Below are positions 47,666 to 64,000 of a DNA stretch of 64,000 nt, piece by piece (position 1 is the first letter of the stretch; every line of letters begins with the position of its first letter). The position numbers and the translations under genes are program-made. A model generated the notes under the pieces. It ran no database searches, was not told the origin of the DNA, and worked only from the letters and a program-made list of their open reading frames with translations. Source of the stretch: Acutalibacteraceae bacterium (GTDB taxonomy: Bacteria > Bacillota > Clostridia > Oscillospirales > Acutalibacteraceae); the NCBI GenBank assembly GCA_045598305.1, contig JAZLLW010000031.1:939-64938 (forward strand), read 5' to 3'.

Positions 47666-48685
47666 ATGAAAAGAGTGACGAGGGGAATCGTTGCTTTGCT
47701 GATGATGATTTCCCTTACTCTCACCGCTTCGGCGGAGAAAATCAACATAAAAATCGACGGCAAAAACGAAAATAAAGAGTGGTTTGATGCTCAGACCGAA
47801 ATTCTGTTTAAGGAATCGGAGCAAAACGGCAACAACGTTGTCACAGCCGTAATGAAATATCTGTTTGACACTTCCTCGGAAAACCGCGTTTACTGTATGA
47901 TTTCCGTCTGGACAAAGGAAATAACGGACGGGGGATTGCCGAAGGTAAAATTCAGCATCAACGGCAGCGAAATGATAACGGTGTATGCAGAAACCGAAGA
48001 AACGCCGCATCCCCTTATCAATAACGACGATTATCTCATTGATGCCTGCCTTAAGACAGAAACGTCCGATTCCTACATCCTGGAAATCAAGTTTGATGAT
48101 AAATCGGGGCTGGGCGGGGCTCCTTCCTGGACTGTTCAGGTGGGAGACGAGCAGGGCGTTTTATCGGATGCAAGAGGCGGAAGATTTGAAAATCCTCTCT
48201 ACACTACCCCGGCTTCAACCACGGAAAAAACGACCGTAAGGAAGACGACCGTCAGAGCCGGAAAGACAGAGAAAAATACTCAGAGGACAACAAGACCCAC
48301 CACTACCTACAAATCACATCTTACAAAAAAAGCTTCAGCCGAAAAAACGACCGTGAAAGCGGAAAAAGCCGTTTCCTCAAAGGCGGCAGAGAAGGTAACG
48401 ACCGAAAAGCCGTATTCCGAAGCGAAAAGCTCCGAAGCCTTAAGAATTTCAACGTCTGCCGTAAGTACGGCGGCGGGCGGAGATTCTCTGTTTGACGAAA
48501 GCGGTCTTTCAAGAGCATCAGTATATAAAATCGCGGTCTGTGCGGGTGCGGTGATTCTTTTCGGAATCCTCGGCCTTTGGGCAATCCGTACAAGAGCGGA
48601 TGCCGACAGGGCGGAAAAGGAAGAAGCGCCGTCGGAAAAGGACGACACAGACTCTGAAGATAAAGACAACAACCACGGAGAATAA
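47666..48685 (+). CDS. Cell-surface hypothetical protein (signal peptide, Thr/Lys-rich linker, C-terminal TM anchor)
   Basis: 339 aa with signal peptide ...LTASA-EK, the low-complexity stretch TTEKTTVRKTTVRAGKTEKNTQRTTRPTTT, and a TM segment near the C-terminus. Confidence 0.5.
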   Translation: MKRVTRGIVALLMMISLTLTASAEKINIKIDGKNENKEWFDAQTEILFKESEQNGNNVVTAVMKYLFDTSSENRVYCMISVWTKEITDGGLPKVKFSINGSEMITVYAETEETPHPLINNDDYLIDACLKTETSDSYILEIKFDDKSGLGGAPSWTVQVGDEQGVLSDARGGRFENPLYTTPASTTEKTTVRKTTVRAGKTEKNTQRTTRPTTTYKSHLTKKASAEKTTVKAEKAVSSKAAEKVTTEKPYSEAKSSEALRISTSAVSTAAGGDSLFDESGLSRASVYKIAVCAGAVILFGILGLWAIRTRADADRAEKEEAPSEKDDTDSEDKDNNHGE

Positions 48686-48686
48686 T

Positions 48687-49421
48687 ATGTTAGAACTGAA
48701 AAATCTTTCATTCAATGTTGATACCGATAACGGTAATCTTGAAATCATTGATGATATTAACCTTGTAATTCCCGACGGTCAGTTCACCGTCATTACGGGA
48801 CCGAACGGCGGAGGCAAATCCACCCTTGCAAGACTGATTATGGGAATTGAAAAGCCCACAAGCGGTCAGATTCTCTTCAACGGCACGGATATTACGGATA
48901 TGTCCGTTACCGAAAGGGCAAAGCTCGGCATCGGCTACGCCTTCCAGCAGCCCCCCAGATTCAAGGGACTTACCGTCAGACGCCTTCTCTCCCTTGCGGC
49001 AGGCAGTGAGCTTCCCGAGGATGAATGCTGCGGCTATCTTACGGGTGTGGGACTCTGTTCAAAGGATTATCTGAACAGAGAGATGGACGCTTCTCTTTCG
49101 GGCGGCGAAGCCAAGAGAATAGAAATTGCTACACTTATGGCAAGAAAGCTTGAGCTGGCCATCTTTGATGAGCCGGAGGCGGGTATTGACCTGTGGAGCT
49201 TCTCCGTTCTTGTTGAAAGCTTCAAGGCAATGACCAACGGCAGACACAACGGCGTTATCGTCATTTCCCATCAGGAAAGAATTATGAATCTTGCCGATTC
49301 GATGATAGTCATTGCGAACGGCAAGGTCAAATCTCAGGGCACAAAGGAAGAAATCTTCCCCACTCTGCTTGGTGAATTTACGCAGGCCTGCGATTTCAGA
49401 GGCAAAGGAGGACAGGAATGA
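48687..49421 (+). CDS. sufC: Fe-S cluster assembly ATPase SufC
   Basis: Start MLELKNLSF at 48687 follows ACGGAG. It has Walker A GPNGGGKST, the signature LSGGEAKR and Walker B AIFDEPEAG. The longer annotated start overlaps the previous gene. Confidence 0.85.
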   Translation: MLELKNLSFNVDTDNGNLEIIDDINLVIPDGQFTVITGPNGGGKSTLARLIMGIEKPTSGQILFNGTDITDMSVTERAKLGIGYAFQQPPRFKGLTVRRLLSLAAGSELPEDECCGYLTGVGLCSKDYLNREMDASLSGGEAKRIEIATLMARKLELAIFDEPEAGIDLWSFSVLVESFKAMTNGRHNGVIVISHQERIMNLADSMIVIANGKVKSQGTKEEIFPTLLGEFTQACDFRGKGGQE

Positions 49422-50338
49422 TGGATAAAATTGATTCGGGTCTTCTTCAGGAAATAGCAGACATTCACGAAACTCCCATCGGAGCTTATAATCTGAGAAA
49501 AAACGGCGAGGGTGTTGAAAGACATACCACCGCAAATATTGAAATCATAACGAAAAAGGACAAGCCCGGCATAGATATCATTGTTGCTCCCGACACAAAG
49601 AACGAGAGCATCCATATTCCCGTTATTCTTACGGAAACGGGCATCAACGACGTGGTTTACAACGATTTTTATATCGGCGACAATGCGGACGTGCTTATCG
49701 TTGCGGGATGCGGAATTCACAACTGCGGCGACCAGAAGTCACAGCACGACGGTATCCACTCCTTCCATATCGGCAAGGGTGCAAAAATCAAATACGTTGA
49801 GAAGCATTACGGCGAAGGAAACGGCACGGGCGAGAGAGTTCTCAATCCCGTAACCGTCGTTGAGCAGGATGAAAATTCCGTCTGCGAAATGGAAATGGTA
49901 CAGATAAGGGGCGTTGACTCCACAAAGAGAGACACCACCGCTTCCCTCAAGGCGGGCGCGCGGCTTATCGTTACCGAGCGTCTTCTCACGGACGGCGACC
50001 AGTTCGCACATTCAAATATTGAGGTACAGCTCAACGGCGAGGATTCCTCCGCGCAGATAGTATCCCGTACCGTTGCAAAGGATAAGTCCGAGCAGATATT
50101 CTATTACAATGCGGTCGGCAACGACAAGTGCAGAGCCCACGTCCAGTGCGATTCAATTATTATGGACGAGGCAAAGGTCGCTTCGATTCCCGCCATACGC
50201 GCCAACAGTGCGGATGCTCAGATCATTCACGAAGCGGCAATCGGCAGAATCAATAATGACCAGCTGCTGAAGCTGATGACGTTCGGGATGAATGAGGAAG
50301 AGGCGGAAGAGGTTATTATCTCCGGCTTCTTAAAATAA
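49418..50338 (+). CDS. SufB/SufD-family Fe-S assembly protein (short form)
   Basis: 306 aa with an ATGA overlap with sufC and the beta-helix core typical of SufBD. Confidence 0.75.
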   Translation: MMDKIDSGLLQEIADIHETPIGAYNLRKNGEGVERHTTANIEIITKKDKPGIDIIVAPDTKNESIHIPVILTETGINDVVYNDFYIGDNADVLIVAGCGIHNCGDQKSQHDGIHSFHIGKGAKIKYVEKHYGEGNGTGERVLNPVTVVEQDENSVCEMEMVQIRGVDSTKRDTTASLKAGARLIVTERLLTDGDQFAHSNIEVQLNGEDSSAQIVSRTVAKDKSEQIFYYNAVGNDKCRAHVQCDSIIMDEAKVASIPAIRANSADAQIIHEAAIGRINNDQLLKLMTFGMNEEEAEEVIISGFLK

Positions 50339-53240: not shown

Positions 53241-53269
53241 TTGATTTTACTATGCTAATGTGATAAATT
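53241..53269 (+). promoter_or_regulatory. Sigma-A-type promoter of the amino-acid ABC operon
   Basis: TTGATT (53241-46), 17 nt, TAAATT (53264-69), with a TG extended -10 element. Confidence 0.5.
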
Positions 53270-53304
53270 ATGAACGCATTAAAATAAAAAACGGAGGTAA
53301 AAGT

Positions 53305-54159
53305 ATGAAAAAGAAAGTAATGGCACTTCTTCTTGCTGCGGTACTGGTCGTTCTTACTCTCGGCCTTGCAGGATGCGGCGTAACAAAGAAGCCGACGGAA
53401 GAAGCAGACACCACAACAACCACGGAAACAGCTTCAAACAACGAAAAGAAAGTATTCACAATGGGCATTGACGCCGAGTATCCTCCCTTCAGCTATATGG
53501 ACGATAACGGCGAATATACCGGTTTTGATGTTGAAATCTGTAAAGCCGCATGCGAAAGACTCGGCTGGGAATTCGAAGTGTTCGGTGTAAACTGGGACGA
53601 GAAGCTTATCCAGCTTGATGCCGGTGAATGTGACTGCGTATGGTCGGGCATGACAATCCTTCCCTCAATGAAAGAGGCGGGCTACGTTATTTCCGAGCCC
53701 TACTATGACAACACTCAGGTAGTTATCGTTAAGGACAGCAGCCCCATCAAGACTTCCGAAGACCTTGCAGGCAAGTCCGTTGCAGTTCAGCTCGGTACTT
53801 CCGGCGAAGCTCTCCTTGCAGATGACGGCGACTGTGCAGACCTTTCCGCAACCTTCGGTGAGCTCGTCACCTGCGAAAGCTTCCTCAAGTGCTTCGCAGA
53901 GCTTGAAGGAAACGGCGTTGACGCAGTATTTGTAGACGCTCCCGTTGCAAAGACATACGCTGCAGAGCACGAAGGATTCAGAATCATTGACGAAAATCTC
54001 GGTGCAGAGCAGTACGGTATTGCTTTCCGTGCAGACGATCAGGCAGATTGCGATGCTATTTCCGGTGCGGTTTGCTCCATGGTTGAGGACGGTACTTACG
54101 CAAAGATCGCAGAGAAGTATCCCGACATCGTCAACAATCTTCTCTTCCTCAACAAATAA
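53305..54159 (+). CDS. Amino-acid ABC transporter substrate-binding lipoprotein (family 3 SBP)
   Basis: Start MKKKVMALLL and lipobox LGLAGC. The protein shows type-3 SBP (polar amino-acid binding protein) sequence character, for example FTMGIDAEYPPFSY. Confidence 0.85.
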   Translation: MKKKVMALLLAAVLVVLTLGLAGCGVTKKPTEEADTTTTTETASNNEKKVFTMGIDAEYPPFSYMDDNGEYTGFDVEICKAACERLGWEFEVFGVNWDEKLIQLDAGECDCVWSGMTILPSMKEAGYVISEPYYDNTQVVIVKDSSPIKTSEDLAGKSVAVQLGTSGEALLADDGDCADLSATFGELVTCESFLKCFAELEGNGVDAVFVDAPVAKTYAAEHEGFRIIDENLGAEQYGIAFRADDQADCDAISGAVCSMVEDGTYAKIAEKYPDIVNNLLFLNK

Positions 54160-54180
54160 TCAGTTTGTTTATCAGGCGTT

Positions 54181-54210
54181 TCCCGAAGATACAGTAATGT
54201 GTCTTCGGGA
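54181..54210 (+). other. Intra-operon hairpin between the SBP and permease genes
   Basis: TCCCGAAGA (54181-89) pairs with TCTTCGGGA (54202-10) and is followed by ATTTTCCC. It could be a partial terminator that sets SBP:permease stoichiometry. Confidence 0.4.
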
Positions 54211-54241
54211 ATTTTCCCTATTCTAATATCGGAGGTTGGTT

Positions 54242-54940
54242 ATGACACTGGCAACAATGATAATGAAGATGAGCGAGGGCTTGGGCAAGACCTGTGCCAT
54301 CTTTTTCCTTACACTGCTGTTCGCTCTTCCCCTGGGAATGATAGTTGCTCTGCTCAGAGGAAGCAAAATCAAGGTCATATCAAAAATCACCCAGTTCTGT
54401 ATTTCCGTGCTCAGAGGTACTCCTCTGATGCTTCAGCTTCTTGCGGTCACCTACGGTCCCTATTACCTTTCCGTAGCCGTCAACAAGCTTTCCGATATAT
54501 ATAACTGGAGCTTTTATCTGGATATCAGCATTTCAAGGAATAAGCTGATACCGGTTGTGATTGCTTTTGCCATAAATTATGCCGCCTACTTTGCGGAAAT
54601 ATACAGAAGCGGTCTGGAATCCATGCCGGCAGGTCAGTATGAGGCCGCTCACGTGCTCGGCTACAGCAAGCCCCAGACCTTCATGAAAATCATTCTTCCC
54701 CAGGTGATACGCCGTATTCTGCCCAGCATGACGAACGAAATCGTTACTCTTGTCAAGGATACGTCAATGGCGTTTACCGTTTCCTATCAGGAAATGTTTA
54801 CCATCGGTAAGCAGATAGCAAATTCACAGACCAGCTTCGTGCCCTTCATTGTTGCGGGCGTATTCTACTACATATTCAATGCGATTGTCGGATTTGTAAT
54901 GGGCAGGGTCGAAAAATCAATGAGCTACTACACGATGTAA
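54242..54940 (+). CDS. Amino-acid ABC transporter permease (His/Glu/Gln/Arg/opine family)
   Basis: ATG at 54242 follows GGAGG. It has about 5 TM segments and an EAA-like loop ([22 protein letters not shown]). Confidence 0.85.
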
Positions 54941-54951
54941 GGAGGGTTTTT

Positions 54952-55707
54952 ATGAGCGTTCTTGAAATGAATAATGTCAAAAAATCCTTCGGCTCAAATA
55001 ACGTATTGAAGGATATTTCAATCAGAGTTGAAAAGGGCGAGGTCGTTTCGATTATCGGTCCCTCCGGCTCGGGCAAATCAACGCTTCTGCGCTGTGCGAC
55101 TCTGCTTGAAACCATGGATTCGGGTACTCTTTCCTACAACGGCACCAAAGCGGCGTGGATGGAGGAAAACGGTATCAGATACACCAGAAATCTGAATGAG
55201 GTCCGTCGTCATTTCGGACTCGTTTTTCAGAATTACAATCTTTTTCCCCATTACAGCGTAATAAAGAATCTTATGGATGCTCCCGTTTCGGTCATGAAAA
55301 GAAACAAGGACGAGGTCAGACGGGAATGTATGGAGCTGCTCTCAAAAATGGGACTTGAGGATAAGGCGGATGCCTATCCCTGCCAGCTTTCGGGCGGTCA
55401 GCAGCAGAGAGTTTCAATCGCAAGAGCTCTTGCAATGAAGCCGGAAATCCTTTTCTTTGACGAGCCCACGTCGGCACTTGACCCCGAGCTTACGGGCGAG
55501 GTGCTGAAGGTAATCAAGGAGCTTGCGGAGTCAAAGATGACCATGGTAATCGTTACCCACGAAATGTCCTTTGCCCGTGCCGTTTCCGACAAGGTAATCT
55601 TCATGGACCAAGGCGTAATAGTTGAGCAGGGCGCACCCGAAGAGCTTTTCGGCAATACACAGTCGGAAAGAACGAAGCAGTTCCTACAGAATTACAACAG
55701 TATATGA
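54952..55707 (+). CDS. Amino-acid ABC transporter ATP-binding protein
   Basis: Walker [10 protein letters not shown], signature LSGGQQQR, Walker [12 protein letters not shown]. Confidence 0.9.
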
Positions 55708-56444
55708 TTGAATATTATTATCTTGACCCGTCACGGAATATTACCCTGCTGGTGACTTCTCCCGTTTTGCCGGAAGACAGAGCCCGTATCGCGTCGGAGC
55801 TGATGTTACTTGAGCCCACGGCAGAGCAGGTCGGATTTGTCAGAGGAAACCGTCTTGATATGGCAGGCGGTGAGTTTTGCGGAAACGCCGCTCTTTCTGC
55901 CGCCGCGCTTTATTGCAGGGAAAACGGCATTGACGAGGGCAGCGTAAAAATGAGCATATCAGGCGTACACAAGGAGCTGACGGTGCTTATCCGCAGGACC
56001 TCGGAGAACGGATACACGGGTACTGTGGATATGCCTTCTTCTCTCGGAATAAGGACAGTTGAGGGCTTTACGAGGGTTGATTTTGACGGTATTTCCCATA
56101 TTATTGTTGAGGGGAATATGGAAAAGGAGAAGGCAGAGGAGCTGGCAAAAAGAGTATGTGCCGTGCTCGGAGCCGATGCCGTCGGAGTGATGCTCCTTGA
56201 CGAAAAAGAAAGCCGGTTGACCCCTCTCGTTTACGTTCCCGCCGCAGACACGATGTGCTGGGAAAATTCCTGCGCAAGCGGAACGACCGCCGTGGGAGTT
56301 TATCTTGCAGATAAATACGGCAGCGAAATCACGGCTGATTTCATTCAGCCCGGCGGTATTCTCAGAGTGACCGCTTCGCCGAATAAAAAACCCGCCTTCA
56401 CGGGTACCGTAATAATCGGTGAGCTCAAAAAAGCGGATATATAA
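55704..56444 (+). CDS. DapF-fold (diaminopimelate epimerase-like) two-cysteine racemase/epimerase candidate
   Basis: 246 aa. [13 protein letters not shown] and [12 protein letters not shown] resemble the two catalytic Cys loops of DapF (MCGNG and ACGTGA). An ATGA overlap links it to the ABC ATPase gene. Confidence 0.55.
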
Positions 56445-56450
56445 CATAAA

Positions 56451-56488
56451 CAAAAAATCCTCCGATTCAGGTCGGAGGATTTCTTTTT
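56451..56488. terminator. Bidirectional rho-independent terminator
   Basis: ATCCTCCGA (56457-65) pairs with TCGGAGGAT (56472-80). An A-run on the left and a T-run on the right make it functional in both directions. Confidence 0.8.
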
Positions 56489-56489
56489 A

Positions 56490-57020
56490 TCAATAATTGT
56501 AGCCGGTGTCAAGCGCCTTGAAGTTGATTTCCTTCAGATTTGCCTTTCTTGCGGATACGACCTTATCAAGTGCCTTGTCAATGTTATCGTAGGGAACGAT
56601 ACCCGTTTCCTTGATAACCTTGCCTATCATAATCATGTTGGCAAGTGTGGGGGCGTCGATATCCTTTGCAAGCTTTGTTGCGGGAATGTAGAATACCTTG
56701 ACGTCGTCTCTCTTGACCTTTCTCTCAATGAGAGTGGAGTCAACGAAGATATAACCGCCGGGAACTACGTCATTCTCGTACTTGTCAAGCGAAGGAAGGT
56801 TCATAACCATAAGAACGTCGGGCTTTGAAACGATAGGTGAGCCGACGGGCTCATCGCTTACGATAACGGAGCAGTTAGCCGTACCGCCGCGCATTTCGGG
56901 ACCGTATGAGGGAAGCCAGGAAAGCTGCTTTTCTTCAAGCAGTGCCTTATATGCAAGGAATTTACCTGCAAAGAGAACGCCCTGACCGCCGAAGCCGGCA
57001 ATAAGCATCTGAGTTGTCAT
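56490..57020 (-). CDS. 2-oxoacid:ferredoxin oxidoreductase, gamma subunit
   Basis: 176 aa. [14 protein letters not shown] is typical of the OFOR gamma domain. Confidence 0.85.
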
Positions 57021-57021
57021 A

Positions 57022-57777
57022 TTACTCGGCCTCCTTTTCTGCGCTTCTGTCCTTATAAACGCCGAGAGGATAGTAGGGAATCATCTTCTCATCAATCCAG
57101 TTGAGAGCGTCCTGAGGAGTCATACCCCAGTTTGTGGGGCAGGAAGATACTACTTCAACAAGGGAGAAGCCCTTGCCGTTAATCTGATTTTCAAAGGCCT
57201 TCTTGATTGCCTTCTGTGCCTGCTTAACGTTCTTTACGTTATTTACGGCTACGCGGGTGATATATTCGGGACCGTCAAGGGTAGCGAGCATTTCGCATAC
57301 TCTGATGGGGAAGCCGGCTGTGGTTACGTCTCTGCCGTAAGGAGAGGTCTGGGTGACCTGACCGGGGAGAGAGGTGGGAGCCATCTGACCGCCTGTCATA
57401 CCGTAGATTGCATTGTTGACAAAGATTACGGTGATGTTTTCATTTCTGGTTGCTGAATGAACTGTCTCTGCCATACCGATGGAAGCAAGGTCACCGTCAC
57501 CCTGATAGGTGAAGATAACGTTTTCGGGCATTGCTCTCTTAAGACCCGTTGCAACCGCGGGAGCTCTGCCGTGAGCGGCCTCTACCATATCGCATGAGAA
57601 GTAATTGTAAGCCATAACCGCGCAGCCGACGGGTGCAACGCCTACGGTCTTGCCTTCTATGCCGAGTTCATCGATTGCCTGGGCAACAAGACGGTGAATG
57701 ATACCGTGAGTACAGCCGGGGCAATAATGAAGAGGAGCATCTGTCAGACTTTTCGGTTTTTCAAAAACAACTGCCAT
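57022..57777 (-). CDS. 2-oxoacid:ferredoxin oxidoreductase, beta (TPP-binding) subunit
   Basis: 251 aa with YCPGCTHG and the TPP motif GDGD...[11 protein letters not shown]. Confidence 0.9.
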
Positions 57778-58838
57778 TATTCATTACCTCCTGCTGCTTT
57801 TTTGATTGATTCAAGCACCTGCTCGGGTGAAGGAATCATGCCGCCTACTCTATAGCACAGATCAACGGGCTTCTTGCAGTTTGTTGCAAGCTTGATATCC
57901 TCAATCATCTGTCCCATGGAAAGCTCAACGCTGATGAAGGACTTGACCTTATCTGCTGCTTCTGCAATGGGCTTCTTGGGGAAGGGCCATACTGTGATAG
58001 GTCTGATCATACCGACCTTGATGCCCTGCTTTCTTGCTTCAACTACTGCGTTTCTGGATACTCTGGCTGCGATGCCGAAGGCAACAACACAGATTTCCGC
58101 ATCGTCCATCATGAAGCTTTCGTAACGTGCTTCATTCTCTTCAATGTATTTATATCTTTCAAATCTTTCGTTATTCGTCTTTTCGAGTTCTTCGGGAACG
58201 AGGTAGAGGGAGTTGACGATATTGTGCTCTCTCTTCATTCCGGTACCCGTAACTGCCCAGGGCTTCTCAATCATATTGGGAGCTTCATCGGGAAGCTCGA
58301 CGGGCTCCATCATCTGACCCATCGTGCCGTCTGCAAGAAGCATGGCGGGCATTCTGTATTTATCTGCAAGGTCAAATGCGAGACTTACGAGGTCAGCCAT
58401 TTCCTGAACGGAAGCGGGAGTGAGAACGATAAGGTGATAGTCACCGTGTCCGCCGCCCTTTGTTGCCTGGAAATAGTCGGACTGTGAGGGCTGGATGCCG
58501 CCGAGACCGGGGCCGCCTCTCTGAACATTGACGATAAGTGCGGGAAGGTCGGCACCTGCGATATAGGAAATGCCTTCCTGCTTGAGTGATACTCCGGGGC
58601 TGGAGGAGGAGGTCATTACTCTCTTACCTGCCGAGGAAACACCGTAAACCATATTGATTGCAGCAATTTCGCTTTCTGCCTGCAGGAAAGTTCCGCCGAT
58701 TTTCGGCATTCTCTTTGCCATGTAAGCGGCAAGCTCAGTCTGCGGAGTGATGGGGTATCCGAAGTAATGGAGACAGCCGGCTCTGATAGCGGCCTCTGCG
58801 ATTGCCTCGTTGCCCTTCATAAGTACTTTTTCAGACAT
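57777..58838 (-). CDS. 2-oxoacid:ferredoxin oxidoreductase, alpha subunit (VorB/KorA type)
   Basis: 353 aa reading [27 protein letters not shown] 1-nt overlap links it to the beta subunit gene. Confidence 0.9.
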
Positions 58839-58848
58839 TATTCACACC

Positions 58849-59055
58849 TCACTTTTCTACTGTTATGACGCAGTCGGGACACATGGTTGCACAGAAAGCA
58901 CAGCCGATGCACTTTGACTGGTCGGTCATTTCAGCGGGGGAATGTCCTTTTTTGTTGATTTTGTCCTTTGCGATAACTATAAGCTGCTTGGGACACGCCG
59001 TAACACACAGACCGCAGCCCTTGCAGGTATCTGTTTCAAAGGTAACTTTTGCCAT
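58849..59055 (-). CDS. 2-oxoacid:ferredoxin oxidoreductase, delta subunit (2x[4Fe-4S] ferredoxin)
   Basis: 68 aa with CKGCGLCVTACP and CIGCAFCATMCP. Confidence 0.85.
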   Translation of the reverse strand: MAKVTFETDTCKGCGLCVTACPKQLIVIAKDKINKKGHSPAEMTDQSKCIGCAFCATMCPDCVITVEK

Positions 59056-59072
59056 AAGAACACATTCCTTTC

Positions 59073-59732
59073 TTAATAATATTTTGCCTGTAAATCAAGC
59101 GGCAGGATACCGTCATCGGCATCGCCGGAGATTAAATTACGTTTGACGGTGGTCATTACAACGGGAATACCGCTTATCCTTGCAAGCTCATCTGCAAGAG
59201 AAGCCGTTTTTTCAACGTCCTCAAGAGTCGTTTCCTCGCCGAGATTTGAATTGTTGACAATTCCCGTAAAGGGAATTTTGCCCGCAATTTCAATTTCTCT
59301 CATAACCTCAAGGGCCTCCTCGGGAGTTCTTGTAAGGGGACGGTAAAAGTTTGCGACAAACAGATTGTTGTAGTCGTTTTCTTCAAGGATGAAGGGAGAA
59401 AATCTGCCCAGGGCGTAAGCACCTCTGTCATCTCCGCCTATATCGAGCACGGCGTATTTGTCGTGAAACTCAAACAGACCGTAAAGCTCCTGGGGGAGAG
59501 AGGGCAGGTCAATGTTGGTGTTGGCGTAATGAGGGGAAATCAGATTGATTCCTGCCTCGTTAAGCTCCTTTTCGCTGTCCTTCGTGCGGAAATAGGGATT
59601 TACTATATCCATATCCGCAACGTTGACTTCCTTGCCCAGCTTCCTGAGAAGAAAAGCGTAGTTGACCGCAATATTTGTTTTGCCGCTGCCGTAATGACCG
59701 CAGAAGAGGGTTACTCTTTTGTGATTCAGCAT
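59073..59732 (-). CDS. MinD/ParA/CooC-like (SIMIBI) P-loop NTPase
   Basis: I prefer the start MLNHKRVTLFCGHYGSGKTN at 59732, which overlaps the ilvE stop (ATGCTGA). It has Walker A GHYGSGKT and a Walker B-like VLDIGGDD. Confidence 0.7.
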   Translation of the reverse strand: MLNHKRVTLFCGHYGSGKTNIAVNYAFLLRKLGKEVNVADMDIVNPYFRTKDSEKELNEAGINLISPHYANTNIDLPSLPQELYGLFEFHDKYAVLDIGGDDRGAYALGRFSPFILEENDYNNLFVANFYRPLTRTPEEALEVMREIEIAGKIPFTGIVNNSNLGEETTLEDVEKTASLADELARISGIPVVMTTVKRNLISGDADDGILPLDLQAKYY

Positions 59733-60793
59733 ACCTTGTGGCACCAGCCGTCTTTGTCTTCGATTTTGCCCCACTGGATACCGGTGAGCTCGTCATAGAG
59801 TGCCTGGGTAACTTCACCGATCTTGCCGCCGTTTACAACGAATTCCTCGTCCTTGTAGCTGAGCCAGCCGATGGGAGATACGACTGCAGCAGTACCTGTG
59901 CCCCATGCTTCCTCAAGAGTACCGTTCTTGGCTGCTTCGTAAAGCTCGTCAATGGAGATAAGTCTCTCGGAAACCTTGTAGCCCTTTGCCTTGAGAAGCT
60001 CTACGCAGCTCTTTCTGGTGATGCCGGGAAGAACGGAGCCGGTAAGCTCGGGAGTAACGATTTCGCCGTTGATTTTGAACATTACGTTCATTGAGCCGAC
60101 TTCTTCGATATACTTTCTGTGAACGCCGTCAAGCCAGAGAACCTGAGTGAAGCCCTTCTTCTCTGCCTTTTCGCCTGCACGGAGAGAAGCAGCATAGTTG
60201 CCGCCGCACTTTGCATAGCCGGTGCCGCCCTTGACTGCTCTTACGTCTTCGCTCTCGATGGCGATTTTAACGGGATTGATGCCCTCTGCGTAGTAAGCAC
60301 CAACGGGGGAGCAGATAACTATGTAGGTAGCTTCTTTAACGGCATGAACGCCGAGGTGGGGCTCGTTACCGTACATAAAGGGACGAAGATAAAGTGAAGT
60401 GCCTTCCGAATGAGGAACCCAGTCCTTTTCGCATTCAACGATGGCATCAAGAATCTGCATAGCGTCATCCTCGGGAATTTCGGGGAGGCAGAGTCTCTCA
60501 GCGGAATTGTTCATTCTTCTGATATTTTCAATGGGTCTGAACATACGGATTTCACCGTCAGCTGTTCTGTATGCTTTAAGGCCTTCGAAAATTTCCGTGC
60601 CGTAGTGGAGAACTGTTGAAGCGGGGTGAATGGGGATGGGAGCAAAGGGAACGATTCTTGCATCGTGCCAGCCGAGCTCTGCCGAGTAGTCCATCATAAA
60701 CATGTGGTCGGTGAAGATGCGGCCGAAGCCGAGCTTGGATTCATCGACGGGTTTTTCTTTGGGACAGGTTGTCTTTGTGAATTTGATTTCCAT
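59726..60793 (-). CDS. ilvE: Branched-chain amino acid aminotransferase
   Basis: 355 aa, class IV PLP enzyme. Motifs: FEGLKAYR, the KxGGNY-type motif AKCGGNYAASL, and LTGSVLPGITR. Confidence 0.92.
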   Translation of the reverse strand: MEIKFTKTTCPKEKPVDESKLGFGRIFTDHMFMMDYSAELGWHDARIVPFAPIPIHPASTVLHYGTEIFEGLKAYRTADGEIRMFRPIENIRRMNNSAERLCLPEIPEDDAMQILDAIVECEKDWVPHSEGTSLYLRPFMYGNEPHLGVHAVKEATYIVICSPVGAYYAEGINPVKIAIESEDVRAVKGGTGYAKCGGNYAASLRAGEKAEKKGFTQVLWLDGVHRKYIEEVGSMNVMFKINGEIVTPELTGSVLPGITRKSCVELLKAKGYKVSERLISIDELYEAAKNGTLEEAWGTGTAAVVSPIGWLSYKDEEFVVNGGKIGEVTQALYDELTGIQWGKIEDKDGWCHKVC

Positions 60794-60819
60794 AATGTAT
60801 TTTCCTTTCTGTAATAATA

Positions 60820-63111
60820 TTAAAGCCTGTTACGCTGGATTTTTCCGCTGATTGACTTGGGAAGCTCGTCGCGGAATACCACCAGTCTGGGATATTTGTA
60901 AGGAGCCGTATGCTTTTTTACGTAATCCTGAATTTCCTTTTTGAGTTCTTCGGTACCCTCGGTACCCTTGGTAAGTACGATTGATGCTTTGACTATCTGA
61001 CCTCTTACCTCGTCGGGAGCGGCGGATACACCGCATTCCAGAACGTAGGGAAGCTCCATGATAACGCTTTCAATCTCAAAGGGTCCTATGCGGTAGCCGG
61101 AGGATTTGATAACGTCGTCAACGCGGCCAACGTACCAGAAGAAGCCGTCCTCATCCTTCCACGCCGTATCGCCGGTATGATACCAGCCGTTTTTCCACGT
61201 TTCGGCGGTTTTTTCGGGATCGTTGAAGTAGCAGGATGCAAGACCGTAGGGAAGGCCGTCCTTGATGTTGATACAGATTTCGCCTGTTTCACCTACGGGA
61301 ACGGGCTTGTCATCGGGGTCAAGGAGCTGAACGTCATATATGGGAGCGGGCTTGCCCATTGAGCCGATTTTATGGTCGGCACCTCTCATATTGCCGCAGA
61401 TAAGTGCGGATTCCGTCTGACCGAAGCCCTCGAGAATCTGAAGACCCGTTGCCTTCTCAAATAATCTGTAAACCTCGGGATTCAGCGCTTCACCCGCGGT
61501 GGTCATGTGCTGAACTGAGGAAAGGTCGTATTTTGTAATATCCTGACGGATAAGCATACGCAGTATTGTGGGGGGAGCGCAGAAGGTGGTGATGTTGTAC
61601 TGAGCGAACATGGGCAGCAAATCTTCCGCATGGAAGCGGATCTCGTCGTAAACGAAGAGCGCGGTTTCGCACATCCACTGACCGTAGAGCTTGCCCCATG
61701 CCGCCTTTGCCCAGCCCGTGTCGGAATAGGAAAGGTGGATGCCGTCGGGATCAACATCGTGCCAGTATTTTGCGGTATGGAACTGACCGAGGGGATACCA
61801 GTAATTGTGAGCTGCAAGCTTGGGATATCCGGAAGTACCCGAGGTGAAGTACATCAGCATGTAATCGGCTCCGCAGGGAGCATCGTCGGGTCTTTCGTAA
61901 TGGGTGCTGAAGCGCATATATTCCTCGTTGAAGTTTCTCCAGCCCTCTCTCTCGCCGTTGACGATGAACTTGTTGACCATGCCGTCGTATTCCTTCAGCG
62001 CTTCGTCAACGTTGTTGCAGATATTGTCGTCGTATGCGGTACAGAGGATTGAGGTCACGTTTGCAAATCTGAATCTGTAAACGTAGTCGTGGGGGAGAAG
62101 CTGGAAGGTGGCGGGAATTGCGATGGCACCTATTTTTTCAAGAGCGAGGGTAGCAAACCAGAACTGATAGTTTCTCTTGAGTACGAGCATTACTCTGTCG
62201 CCCTTCTTAATGCCCAGAGAAAGGAAATAGTTTACACAGCGGTTGGTGTGCTGCTTGACTTCCTTCCAGGTGAATCTGGTGGGAATCTTTTCGGGGGAAA
62301 CGTAGAGCATTGCGAGCTTATCAGGGTCCTTGTCTGCAATACCGTCGATTATGTCAAACGCGTAGTTGAATTTTTCCGTATTCTTGAATTTAACGGAAAC
62401 GGGAGTGCCGTTCTCGTCTTCAACGGTTTCAATGAACTTTTTATAGACACGGTCCTTCGTATCCCTGACGTGTTTCATTACGGGAGCGTCAAGCTTCTGT
62501 ACCTCTTCAAGCTCGGGAATGGGCTCGCCGGAGGGATTGAGGACGATTGCGTAGAAGCTGCAGTCCTTACCGCCTACCGCACGTTCACCGTGGGGCTTTG
62601 AGGAGTCAAAGTAGATACTGTCACCCGCACCGAGAATTTCTTTGTGGTCACCTATCTGGACCTCAAGCTGTCCTTCGATGACGATGTCGATTTCCTGACC
62701 TTTATGGGTGGTCAGCTCAATGGGATTTGTGAGGGATGCCTCATCAAATTTGCTTATAACGTAGAGGGGCTCGGAAATCCTGTTTTTGAAACCGTATGCC
62801 ATATTGTAATACGTCATACCGTGAGCATCGGAAATCCTGGGCGCCTCGCCTCTGCGGGTTACGAAGTATGAGAAAAGCTTGGGGGTATGGCCTTCAATCA
62901 GATTGGTTACGTCAACCGAAAAAGCGGACGCGCATCTGTAAAGGAAGGCGAAGTTCAGGTCTTTTTTGCCGTTTTCACATGCCAGATATTCTTCAACGCT
63001 GACACCTGTTTTTTCTGCCATATCTTCGGGGGAGAGACCTTCAATCTCTCTCAGCTCCCTGATACGGGCGGCCATTTCCTGAATTTTGAAATCGAGTTCG
63101 GAAATTTCCAT
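60820..63111 (-). CDS. Fusion protein: XRE-type HTH + cupin sensor domain + AMP-forming acyl-CoA synthetase
   Basis: 763 aa. Residues 1-70 form the HTH (IRELREIEGLSPEDMAEKTGVSVEEYLACENGKKDL). Residues about 110-200 form the cupin (HKGQEIDIVIEGQLEVQIGD...YFDSSKPHG). The remainder is ANL-superfamily (YFTSGTSGYPK, YHTGD, SISGKIQR). Confidence 0.85.
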   Translation of the reverse strand: MEISELDFKIQEMAARIRELREIEGLSPEDMAEKTGVSVEEYLACENGKKDLNFAFLYRCASAFSVDVTNLIEGHTPKLFSYFVTRRGEAPRISDAHGMTYYNMAYGFKNRISEPLYVISKFDEASLTNPIELTTHKGQEIDIVIEGQLEVQIGDHKEILGAGDSIYFDSSKPHGERAVGGKDCSFYAIVLNPSGEPIPELEEVQKLDAPVMKHVRDTKDRVYKKFIETVEDENGTPVSVKFKNTEKFNYAFDIIDGIADKDPDKLAMLYVSPEKIPTRFTWKEVKQHTNRCVNYFLSLGIKKGDRVMLVLKRNYQFWFATLALEKIGAIAIPATFQLLPHDYVYRFRFANVTSILCTAYDDNICNNVDEALKEYDGMVNKFIVNGEREGWRNFNEEYMRFSTHYERPDDAPCGADYMLMYFTSGTSGYPKLAAHNYWYPLGQFHTAKYWHDVDPDGIHLSYSDTGWAKAAWGKLYGQWMCETALFVYDEIRFHAEDLLPMFAQYNITTFCAPPTILRMLIRQDITKYDLSSVQHMTTAGEALNPEVYRLFEKATGLQILEGFGQTESALICGNMRGADHKIGSMGKPAPIYDVQLLDPDDKPVPVGETGEICINIKDGLPYGLASCYFNDPEKTAETWKNGWYHTGDTAWKDEDGFFWYVGRVDDVIKSSGYRIGPFEIESVIMELPYVLECGVSAAPDEVRGQIVKASIVLTKGTEGTEELKKEIQDYVKKHTAPYKYPRLVVFRDELPKSISGKIQRNRL

Positions 63112-63134
63112 ATAACACCTCTGTTCCGGGACTT

Positions 63135-63173
63135 AAAAAAGCTCGTCCCAAAGAAGATTACTTTGAGACGAGC
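63135..63173 (-). terminator. Intrinsic terminator of the T-box expression platform
   Basis: The reverse strand reads GCTCGTCTCAAAG, loop TAATCTT, CTTTGGGACGAGC, then TTTTTT. This is a 13-bp stem with one G-U pair. Confidence 0.85.
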
Positions 63174-63392
63174 ATGAATTTCATTACCCGCGGTACCACT
63201 CAAATTGTGTCAAAAGACACCACTCAGGCTCTGACAAGCCGTATGCATTCACGCAGCAATCACGGAGAGGTTCTACTCACTTTCGCTTTCTTCCTCCCGG
63301 CTCGGAAGCTACAATCTCAATCTGCATACTGACGGCTCGCACCAAACGCCGCCTCTCTGAAAGATGCCCGAAAGAGCTCTCTTCGTCAAAGC
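63135..63392 (-). promoter_or_regulatory. T-box riboswitch leader (specifier most likely GUA = Val)
   Basis: On the reverse strand: K-turn/AGAGAG at the 5' end, AG bulge CAGAGAG (63353-59), distal loop GGUGCGA (63337-43), and the conserved T-box sequence AAUUUGAGUGGUACCGCGGG (63187-63206). An overlapping terminator completes the leader. Confidence 0.85.
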
Positions 63393-63410
63393 CTTTTCAT
63401 ATTTTTATAT

Positions 63411-63439
63411 ATAGTAATCCAATTGAATTTGTTTGTCAA
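63411..63439 (-). promoter_or_regulatory. Sigma-A-type promoter in front of the T-box leader
   Basis: The reverse strand reads TTGACA (63434-39), 17 nt, TACTAT (63411-16). Confidence 0.5.
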
Positions 63440-63498
63440 TATTAAATTTTACACAAAAGAAGGGTCATAGATAGCCGGATTTTTTCCGATTGAACGAA

Positions 63499-64000
63499 TT
63501 AAAGCTTATTTCGCTGAATCTTACCGCTGATTGACTTGGGTAGCTCGTCACGGAATACGACAAGTCTGGGATACTTGTAGGGGGCCGTATGCTGCTTGAC
63601 GTAATTCTGTATTTCCTTCTTGAGCTCTTCCGTTCCCTCCGTACCCTTGGTAAGCACGATTGATGCCTTTACTATCTGACCTCTTACCTCGTCGGGAGCG
63701 GCAGATACACCGCATTCCAGTACGTAGGGAAGCTCCATGATAACGCTTTCAATCTCAAAAGGTCCGATACGGTAGCCGGAGGATTTGATTACGTCATCGG
63801 CACGGCCGCCATACCAGAAGTAGCCGTCCTCATCACGCCACGCCGTATCGCCTGTGTGATACATGTTTCCGCGTCTGCAGTCGACGTTCTTCTCGTCCTC
63901 ATCAATGTACTGCCTGAAAAGGCCTACGGGGTCATCGCCGTCAATATGGATTACGATTTCGCCCGTTTCACCGTTTGCAACGGGATTGCCGTCGGGATCC
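63499..64000 (-). CDS. AMP-forming acyl-CoA synthetase paralog, C-terminal part (gene continues past the right window edge)
   Basis: The frame stays open from 63999 down to the stop at 63499 (DPDGNPVANGETGEIVIHIDGDD...MYHTGD...SISGKIQRNKL). The last approximately 120 aa are nearly identical to the C-terminus of 60820..63111. Confidence 0.85.
   Translation of the reverse strand, partial: DPDGNPVANGETGEIVIHIDGDDPVGLFRQYIDEDEKNVDCRRGNMYHTGDTAWRDEDGYFWYGGRADDVIKSSGYRIGPFEIESVIMELPYVLECGVSAAPDEVRGQIVKASIVLTKGTEGTEELKKEIQNYVKQHTAPYKYPRLVVFRDELPKSISGKIQRNKL

Follow-up and report, generated by a model that had tools for sequence, protein, structure and literature searches.

We analyzed a 64,000-nucleotide stretch of contig JAZLLW010000031.1 from an Acutalibacteraceae genome assembly (GCA_045598305.1), hereafter called the window, and found on its minus strand a seven-gene operon behind a T-box leader that carries a valine specifier codon. 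Judging from its sequence, the operon probably encodes a salvage or alternative biosynthetic route to valine that is switched on by uncharged tRNA-Val. That rumen and gut anaerobes require branched-chain volatile fatty acids, from which they make valine, isoleucine and leucine, has been known since the 1960s. In work of the 1960s-70s, Allison, Bryant and co-workers reportedly found that rumen anaerobes make these amino acids by reductive carboxylation of isobutyrate (Val), isovalerate (Leu) and 2-methylbutyrate (Ile). To our knowledge, the genes and the control of this branched-acid route have not been pinned down in the dominant Clostridia. The locus described here is a candidate, testable gene set for the 1960s rumen labelling result in several hundred gut and rumen species of Clostridia. 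The candidate set comprises two ligases differing at one fixed residue of a pocket motif, a putative isovalerate ligase, a putative bacterial 2-oxoacid:ferredoxin oxidoreductase (OFOR) of the VOR type with its accompanying NTPase, and the aminotransferase IlvE.

Operon layout and T-box leader

Open reading frame (ORF) calls and Rfam, Pfam and NCBIfam profile searches were run on the 64-kb window, and the resulting features are collected in Table 1. An earlier note, written from the sequence alone, had described a TTGACA-17-TACTAT promoter, a full T-box leader, seven tightly packed minus-strand genes with gaps of 1-26 nucleotides and two overlaps, and a bidirectional terminator closing the unit. 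All of these features were recovered. The promoter lies at 63439-63411, and a TTGACA plus extended -10 promoter occupies the equivalent site in nearly all orthologous loci. The ORF calls gave intergenic gaps of 26, 17, 10 and 1 nucleotides plus the two overlaps, and the hairpin at 56452-56485 scored as a terminator on both strands. The domain labels of that note likewise agreed with Pfam and NCBIfam, with the exception of the NTPase discussed below.

We aligned the leader to the Rfam T-box model (RF00230) in a local search, which matched 63398-63161 to the whole model (positions 1-219) with 91.1 bits (E 2.6e-20), followed by a terminator. The Rfam gathering score is 93 bits, which leaves the window leader 1.9 bits short, and a scan of the whole window at the gathering threshold returned no match. 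The orthologous leader of a related locus, L013, passes with 100.2 bits. Leaders of the window and of loci L001, L002 and L013 mostly scored 71-92.9 bits, and one of the seven matches in the latter three loci reached the threshold. Because the scores fall just below the Rfam threshold, default annotation reports no riboswitch here. All expected elements of Stem I were nevertheless present in the Rfam alignment, including the K-turn (UGA...GA), AGAGAG and UUGGUG. The antiterminator contains the conserved T-box sequence with its UGGN bulge, AAUUUGAGUGGUACCGCGGG, and the terminator stem and the 3' half of the antiterminator have sequence in common, which makes the two folds mutually exclusive.

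T-boxes turn genes on when their cognate tRNA is uncharged, which is a logic of supply and not of catabolism. The main text of a survey of T-box regulons describes the specifier codon, the UGGN bulge and the intrinsic terminator as parts of the element, with uncharged tRNA stabilizing the antiterminator (PMC2494555). In the window leader, the Rfam codon columns hold GUA; the next base is G (63309), after which the closing helix CUUC spans 63308-63305. On its 3' side, the specifier loop in this alignment reads GAUUGUAG up to the closing helix. Locus L001, which is from the same species and 99% identical, has three T-boxes with CUC, AUC and GUA in identical Rfam columns 91-93.

We next took a census of specifiers by a structure-guided parse across 80 related loci, which had been retrieved for comparison from a scan of GTDB in which each species was represented by one genome. 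Leaders located 5' of ligase 2, the first gene of the window operon, had a T-box motif in 74 of 76 cases, with 65 GUA and three GUC specifiers. Leaders 5' of its paralog, ligase 1, had the motif in 56 of 58 cases, and 54 of them specified AUC. A third ligase was preceded by CUC in 12 cases and by CUG in two, and five further Leu-type leaders had no third ligase in range. The UGGU bulge was common to all Ile, Val and Leu leaders of the loci. The tRNAs for valine, isoleucine and leucine have discriminator A73, which those for cysteine, histidine and serine lack. A specifier register shifted by one base (UGU for Cys, CAU for His or UCU for Ser) could be excluded, as UGGU pairs with A73 and misfits those tRNAs; the shifted register also has no functional logic, and the Rfam codon columns hold GUA, AUC and CUC. 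The census and the alignment support a T-box that senses valine, and binding of uncharged tRNA-Val is predicted. We also looked for analogues of the phenylacetate to phenylalanine (aromatic-acid) type behind other T-boxes and found none in the loci, where the leftover T-box motifs were Leu or Val variants, pheS, or matches within coding sequence.

Table 1. Features of the operon and its flanks in the window
Feature	Position	Strand	Basis or remark
Ligase 1, 3' end; paralogous HTH-cupin-ligase cut by the window end	63499..64000	-	full-length at L001 7031-9614
Sigma-70-type promoter TTGACA-17-TACTAT	63411..63439	-	10/12 match; top-scoring within 56300-64000
T-box leader: Stem I with K-turn, specifier loop and distal AGAGA/GGUG; Stem III; antiterminator	63161..63398	-	Rfam RF00230
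Specifier codon GUA (valine)	63310..63312	-	Rfam model columns 91-93
T-box bulge UGGUACCGCG	63189..63198	-	UGGU complementary to tRNA 3' end ACCA, hence discriminator A73
T-box intrinsic terminator, 13-bp stem then U-run (T6)	63135..63173	-	stem at 63173-63141
Ligase 2, HTH(XRE)-cupin-AMP-forming acyl-CoA synthetase, 763 aa	60820..63111	-	ORF and domains
IlvE, class IV (type II) branched-chain amino acid aminotransferase, 355 aa	59726..60793	-	NCBIfam
Divergent SIMIBI-class P-loop NTPase, 219 aa from ATG 59732	59073..59732	-	Pfam/Foldseek
OFOR delta, 2x[4Fe-4S] ferredoxin, 68 aa, two CxxCxxCxxxCP motifs	58849..59055	-	Pfam Fer4
OFOR alpha (VorB family), 353 aa, YPITP motif	57777..58838	-	NF005507; POR_N, PFOR_II
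OFOR beta, TPP-binding (GDG...NN), cluster cysteines, 251 aa	57022..57777	-	TPP_enzyme_C
OFOR gamma, 176 aa	56490..57020	-	POR domain 128 bits; TIGR02175
Bidirectional intrinsic terminator	56452..56485	both	12-14 bp stems, T-runs; ends the operon and a convergent transporter operon

Conservation of the block and the three-unit array

The scan yielded at least 586 confirmed matching stretches with a relative of the ligase. Matching genomes were almost all metagenome-assembled genomes of Acutalibacteraceae, Oscillospiraceae or 'Ruminococcaceae' from rumen, omasum, colon or faeces. The order of the block was kept in about 70 of the 80 loci and, with the T-box counts given above, this shows the block and its leader to be conserved across many species. 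Since the same arrangement recurs at this frequency, the gene arrangement is not due to chance.

Three units usually stand in tandem, each with its own TTGACA plus extended -10 promoter. Unit 1 consists of the promoter, an Ile T-box and ligase 1. Unit 2 has the promoter, a Val T-box, ligase 2, the P-loop gene, the OFOR genes in the order delta-alpha-beta-gamma, and ilvE. Unit 3 carries the promoter, a Leu T-box, a LeuA-like protein and a fusion of a TIM barrel with a ligase. The clade of the window departs from this order, with ilvE immediately following ligase 2 and the Leu unit placed upstream. Within this larger array, the Val-gated operon takes the middle or final place. Ligase 1 is directly upstream of ligase 2 and about 59% identical to it, and in L001 it follows a separate promoter and an Ile (AUC) T-box. 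With one ligase behind each of the Ile, Val and Leu T-boxes, the array covers all three branched-chain amino acids. In many loci, the stop codon of ligase 1 abuts the ligase 2 promoter with no clear terminator between them, so upstream transcripts run into the Val T-box terminator.

The Leu (CUC or CUG) T-box unit occupies 2730-6898 in L001 and was also present in L011, L022, L025, L035 and others. Its LeuA-like protein has lost catalytic and metal residues (RDGEQ to KHLAE and HCH to KVS) and has kept the leucine-binding LeuA_dimer domain, which hints at a role as a sensor. The third ligase has 818 residues and joins a xylose-isomerase-like TIM barrel to an AMP-forming ligase that is PRK12583-like (643 bits versus a cut-off of 832). 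We propose this ligase, which belongs to an unrelated family, as the enzyme that would activate isovalerate. A poor substrate for MbcS-type enzymes, isovalerate is the acid assigned to the different ligase family behind the Leu gate.

The paralogous ligases

Ligase 2 is composed of HTH_19 (residues 15-72), Cupin_2 (134-189), AMP-binding (259-615) and AMP-binding_C (679-757) domains according to Pfam. The last two scored 187.6 and 74.2 bits, and the A3, A5 and A10 motifs were present along with the catalytic lysine. Relatives are named 'AMP-binding protein', 'acetyl-CoA synthetase' (by JGI) or 'hypothetical'. The best solved relative of the catalytic domain was MacsMa (PDB 3ETC) at 572 bits, with the next structure at 336. 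Identity to MacsMa over the catalytic domains was about 49% for ligase 2 and about 51% for ligase 1. MacsMa prefers 2-methylbutyrate (PMC10455477). The substrates of MbcS are 2-methylbutyrate and isobutyrate; its activity on isovalerate is poor, and acetate is not activated (PMC10026030).

Residues of the acyl pocket point in the same direction. The equivalent of Trp416 in the Acs pocket is a glycine in ligase 2, within EGFGQTE, which is identical in MacsMa. The alternate pocket tryptophan is kept, as DTGWAKAAW472GK of ligase 2 aligns with DSGWGKCVW259GK of MacsMa. Pocket roles have been described for both Trp416 of AcsMt and Trp259 of MacsMa (PMC10455477). NCBIfam models of acetate-CoA ligases scored far below their own cut-offs on ligase 2.

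We compared the catalytic domains of 59 ligase 1 and 79 ligase 2 orthologs and found two positions, 468 and 570, that were differentially conserved between the paralogs. Position 468 was the sole fully fixed difference, being glycine in 59 of 59 ligase 1 sequences (as in MacsMa) and alanine in 79 of 79 ligase 2 sequences. This residue stands four residues before the acyl-pocket Trp472. Position 570 was leucine in 98% of ligase 1 and methionine in 92% of ligase 2 sequences, and the ligase 2 of the window has leucine. The extra methyl of alanine would pair with a substrate smaller by one carbon, that is, isobutyrate (C4) versus 2-methylbutyrate (C5), and the pairing at position 468 agrees with the Val and Ile gates of the two ligases. 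We infer from these sequence comparisons that ligase 2 is an isobutyrate-CoA ligase and that ligase 1 acts on 2-methylbutyrate.

The N-terminal part of ligase 2 combines an XRE-type helix-turn-helix (HTH) domain (window 62900-63066) with a cupin, which together are distantly PuuR-like. The recognition helix is acidic in both paralogs (SVEEY in ligase 2 and SVEDY in ligase 1, or VS-x-E-[ED]-Y in both). A near-palindrome between the -35 and -10 elements, AATTCAATTGGATT, was considered as an operator and rejected, as it is not conserved in at least 45 orthologous promoters. No conserved operator for the fused HTH was visible in the promoters of the three units. The HTH-cupin moiety may sense a ligand instead of binding DNA.

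Two side observations concern the C-terminus of the ligases. The motif PKSISGK757 is invariant in the ortholog alignment, and it matches (window 60820-60860) the PX4GK lysine-acetylation motif described for AMP-forming acyl-CoA synthetases (PMC13041820), making post-translational control of ligase 2 by acetylation possible. The C-terminal segment of about 120 residues (window 60820-61185 versus 63499-63864, and likewise in L001 and other loci) has a protein identity of 87-97% between the two ligases, versus about 59% overall. At the DNA level, its identity is 79-93% versus 54-73% elsewhere. Recent gene conversion or very strong constraint could be behind this similarity. Among orthologs, too, the segment hardly varies, so strong constraint accounts for much of the identity between the paralogs.

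IlvE and the oxidoreductase

IlvE was assigned with scores above two NCBIfam cut-offs, NF009897 (488.7 bits versus 307) and TIGR01123 (399.4 versus 250), and with 113 bits on Pfam Aminotran_4. The alpha subunit of the OFOR scored 556.3 bits on NF005507 (VorB) versus a cut-off of 399, aligning residues 2-350 with positions 2-350 of the 352 in the model. The subunit set of the OFOR is complete and its cofactor motifs are present, namely YPITP, GDG...NN for thiamine pyrophosphate (TPP) and two [4Fe-4S] clusters in delta. Descriptions of VOR are so far confined to archaea (PMC7238569). The titles of two papers cited therein (Heider 1996 and Tersteegen 1997) indicate that VOR is reversible and that it is anabolic in methanogens.

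Proposed route and competing explanations

The route from acid through acyl-CoA and 2-oxoacid to amino acid, which the earlier note had put forward, gains support from the GUA specifier, the kinship of ligase 2 with MacsMa and MbcS, the VorB assignment, the cut-offs passed by the branched-chain aminotransferase and the conservation of the block with its T-box. In the proposed mechanism, uncharged tRNA-Val would bind the leader with its anticodon on GUA and its free ACCA end on UGGU. Binding would stabilize the antiterminator and allow RNA polymerase to read into the seven genes. The MacS/MbcS-like ligase would convert isobutyrate and ATP to isobutyryl-CoA, AMP and pyrophosphate. OFOR and VOR enzymes are reversible given reduced ferredoxin, and the four-subunit VorB-family enzyme would run in reverse, forming 2-oxoisovalerate from isobutyryl-CoA, CO2 and reduced ferredoxin. 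IlvE would then yield valine by transamination. The Ile-gated ligase 1, acting on 2-methylbutyrate, and the Leu-gated ligase, acting on isovalerate, presumably feed the same OFOR and IlvE.

Several observations weigh against this route. The nearest solved relatives of alpha are generic 2-ketoacid and 2-oxoglutarate enzymes, so the VOR specificity is drawn from one hidden Markov model and from context. The beta subunit reaches no curated NCBIfam cut-off (its best score being 129 bits versus 364 on a 2-oxoglutarate OFOR model), and delta falls below all of them, its top-scoring model also being a 2-oxoglutarate OFOR. Gamma passed the generic TIGR02175 alone and marginally (81.5 bits versus 81.1), which leaves beta, gamma and delta without assignment to VOR-specific families. 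For ligase 2, the top curated family is MbcS (NF047394), on which it scored 397.7 bits versus a cut-off of 850. The distribution of genes among the gates is also awkward. OFOR and IlvE would be required by the Ile and Leu routes as well, yet they are found behind the Val gate alone, so starvation for Ile or Leu by itself would induce a ligase without the downstream enzymes. Possible answers to this puzzle are basal read-through, other copies of the OFOR, or joint limitation of the three amino acids.

Two departures from the usual arrangement point the same way. In L002, one Ile T-box serves both ligases and the whole block. A Val-T-box ligase stands alone in L003 (10001-12292) and L012 (9995-12292), as well as in L023, L055 and L071; no OFOR block was found within 10 kb of these lone ligases, and genes on the opposite strand come next. 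A search of the 64-kb window, to which the result is confined, found no ilv or leu genes.

Each of three other explanations accounts for part of the evidence. The ligase may supply lipid primers and spare valine by making isobutyryl-CoA for branched-chain fatty acids, with VOR and IlvE normally oxidative. This primer-supply role is precisely that of the closest curated family, MbcS, in S. aureus, the isobutyryl-CoA product could feed FabH, and branched-chain acids in the classic rumen labelling work are said to have entered lipids too, which counts for this explanation. We consider it unlikely, however, as inducing IlvE and VOR together upon starvation would be senseless if they were meant to consume valine, three amino-acid-specific gates fit amino-acid demand and not membrane composition, and no fab genes were found within or adjoining the block in related loci. 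A different assignment of substrates would make the ligase an acetyl- or propionyl-CoA synthetase and the OFOR a pyruvate or 2-oxoglutarate synthase, with the T-box serving only ilvE. The JGI name for relatives and the sub-cut-off preference of beta and delta for 2-oxoglutarate models agree with this assignment, as do the 2-oxoglutarate synthases among the nearest alpha structures. Nonetheless, the tryptophan confining Acs to acetate and propionate is a glycine in ligase 2, acetate-CoA ligase models score poorly, MacsMa leads the solved relatives by a wide margin, and alpha passes the VorB cut-off. It is also the ligase, not ilvE, that always follows the T-box, even when standing alone, and the ligase exists in Ile-, Val- and Leu-gated versions, all of which makes this assignment very unlikely.

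Peptide fermenters usually run OFORs oxidatively, and IlvE followed by VOR constitutes the first two steps of Stickland-type oxidation of branched-chain amino acids. These habits would suit a catabolic operon in which valine is converted to 2-oxoisovalerate by IlvE, to isobutyryl-CoA by VOR and then to isobutyrate, with the ligase serving energy or CoA recycling. Yet induction by an uncharged cognate tRNA runs opposite to catabolic logic, and an AMP-forming ligase runs from acid to acyl-CoA with no ATP conserved. Catabolic clusters instead use Ptb/Buk or ADP-forming synthetases, none of which occur in the related loci, and we regard a catabolic operon as extremely improbable. Overall, the evidence supports the supply of valine from isobutyrate as a better fit than primer supply, catabolism or other substrates.

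A broader version of the valine-supply route is tentative and, in our estimation, rather doubtful. It would hold that several hundred Oscillospirales species obtain their branched-chain amino acids mainly, perhaps exclusively, through the array. Each of its three gates would pair a ligase with an end-product sensor, namely the HTH-cupin on the Ile and Val ligases and, beside the Leu ligase, the dead LeuA with its intact leucine-binding domain. A dedicated SIMIBI NTPase would be needed to mature or activate VOR for reductive carboxylation.

If the proposed route is true, it is controlled separately for each amino acid through the charging of its tRNA, and the T-box regulon extends to a ferredoxin-dependent step of CO2 fixation. 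The sub-threshold leaders and vague protein names would explain why annotation pipelines miss the system. The genes would also provide markers for gut and rumen species that depend on cross-fed branched-chain acids, with bearing on ruminant nutrition (branched-chain acid supplements) and on models of gut cross-feeding. A possible link is to Ruminococcus bromii, which reportedly requires isobutyrate/2-methylbutyrate.

The P-loop NTPase

The gene for the P-loop protein was always immediately 5' of the OFOR delta gene in the related loci. Its longest ORF begins at GTG 59774, but ATG 59732 is the likelier start, giving 219 residues, the length of nearly all homologues. The Walker A motif is GHYGSGKT, a classical GxxGxGKT without the deviant KGG signature. 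CbiA was matched marginally (26.0 versus a cut-off of 25.4), ParA fell below its cut-off, and all NCBIfam matches were at or below 18 bits. We searched a confident AlphaFold model of the protein (pLDDT 84) with Foldseek, which returned only the SIMIBI class (ATPase-type HypB, SRP GTPases and FlhG) at TM 0.45-0.6.

The earlier note had called this protein MinD/CooC-like, which proved too specific: it has neither the deviant Walker A nor a score above a family cut-off of MinD, CooC or Mrp, and its structure matches the SIMIBI class in general. Family and structure searches found no close characterized relative, and all sources name the protein hypothetical. We excluded a role as a NifH-like, ATP-driven electron donor, given a single cysteine, no cluster ligands and a classical Walker A. 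The NTPase possibly acts in maturation of the OFOR.

Relation to known systems

The operon shares its RNA mechanism and supply logic with the ilv-leu T-box operons of Bacillus and Clostridia. In contrast to those operons, its genes encode an acid-CoA ligase, an OFOR and IlvE rather than the acetolactate pathway, its relatives have three gates (Ile, Val and Leu) that each precede their own ligase, and its leaders fall just below the Rfam threshold. The main text of two surveys of T-box regulons (PMC2494555 and PMC3766115) names no ferredoxin oxidoreductase or acyl-CoA ligase among the targets. No papers tying a T-box to an OFOR or acyl-CoA ligase were found in the full-text literature searched, the coverage of which is incomplete.

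Both ligases resemble MacsMa and MbcS in the pocket glycine and the Trp259 motif, in addition to their overall identity to MacsMa. MacsMa and MbcS both favor alpha-branched short acids, that is, 2-methylbutyrate and, for MbcS, isobutyrate as well. Ligase 2 differs from the two in having an N-terminal HTH(XRE)-cupin of about 200 residues. Further differences are its context of T-box-controlled amino-acid supply rather than lipid primer supply, its score below the MbcS equivalog cut-off and its existence as one of two paralogs with a fixed Gly/Ala difference in the pocket motif. The fusion of an adenylate-forming enzyme to an N-terminal helix-turn-helix recalls BirA by analogy only, as the domain here is XRE-type with a cupin, its recognition helix (SVEEY) is acidic and the promoters lack a conserved operator.

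The oxidoreductase is like archaeal VOR, including the anabolic VOR of Methanobacterium/Methanothermobacter, in being a TPP and Fe-S OFOR with a VorB-class alpha subunit. Unlike archaeal VOR, it is bacterial, its four separate subunits are ordered delta-alpha-beta-gamma and a P-loop NTPase always stands in front. The proposed chemistry is that of reductive carboxylation in the rumen, and the loci come mostly from rumen, omasum, colon and faecal metagenomes. The classic rumen work reportedly consisted of physiology and labelling in other organisms and named no genes or regulation, whereas the route is proposed here from genes and their regulator. What appears new is how known parts are combined, the arrangement in three gates, the pocket residue specific to each paralog and the NTPase linked to the OFOR.

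Genomic neighborhood

The window provides an ordinary chromosomal context for the operon. A convergent operon on the plus strand (53260-56444) encodes a polar amino-acid ABC transporter (SBP_bac_3, permease and ATPase) followed by a 246-residue protein. The latter had no Pfam match and is a distant relative of histidine racemase (145 bits versus 400 for NF052224, and 91 bits for PDB 9CR6). Genes for a SufC-like ABC ATPase and SufBD, which belong to Fe-S assembly, are located at 47666-50338 on the plus strand, about 6 kb from the operon, and probably represent ordinary housekeeping context.

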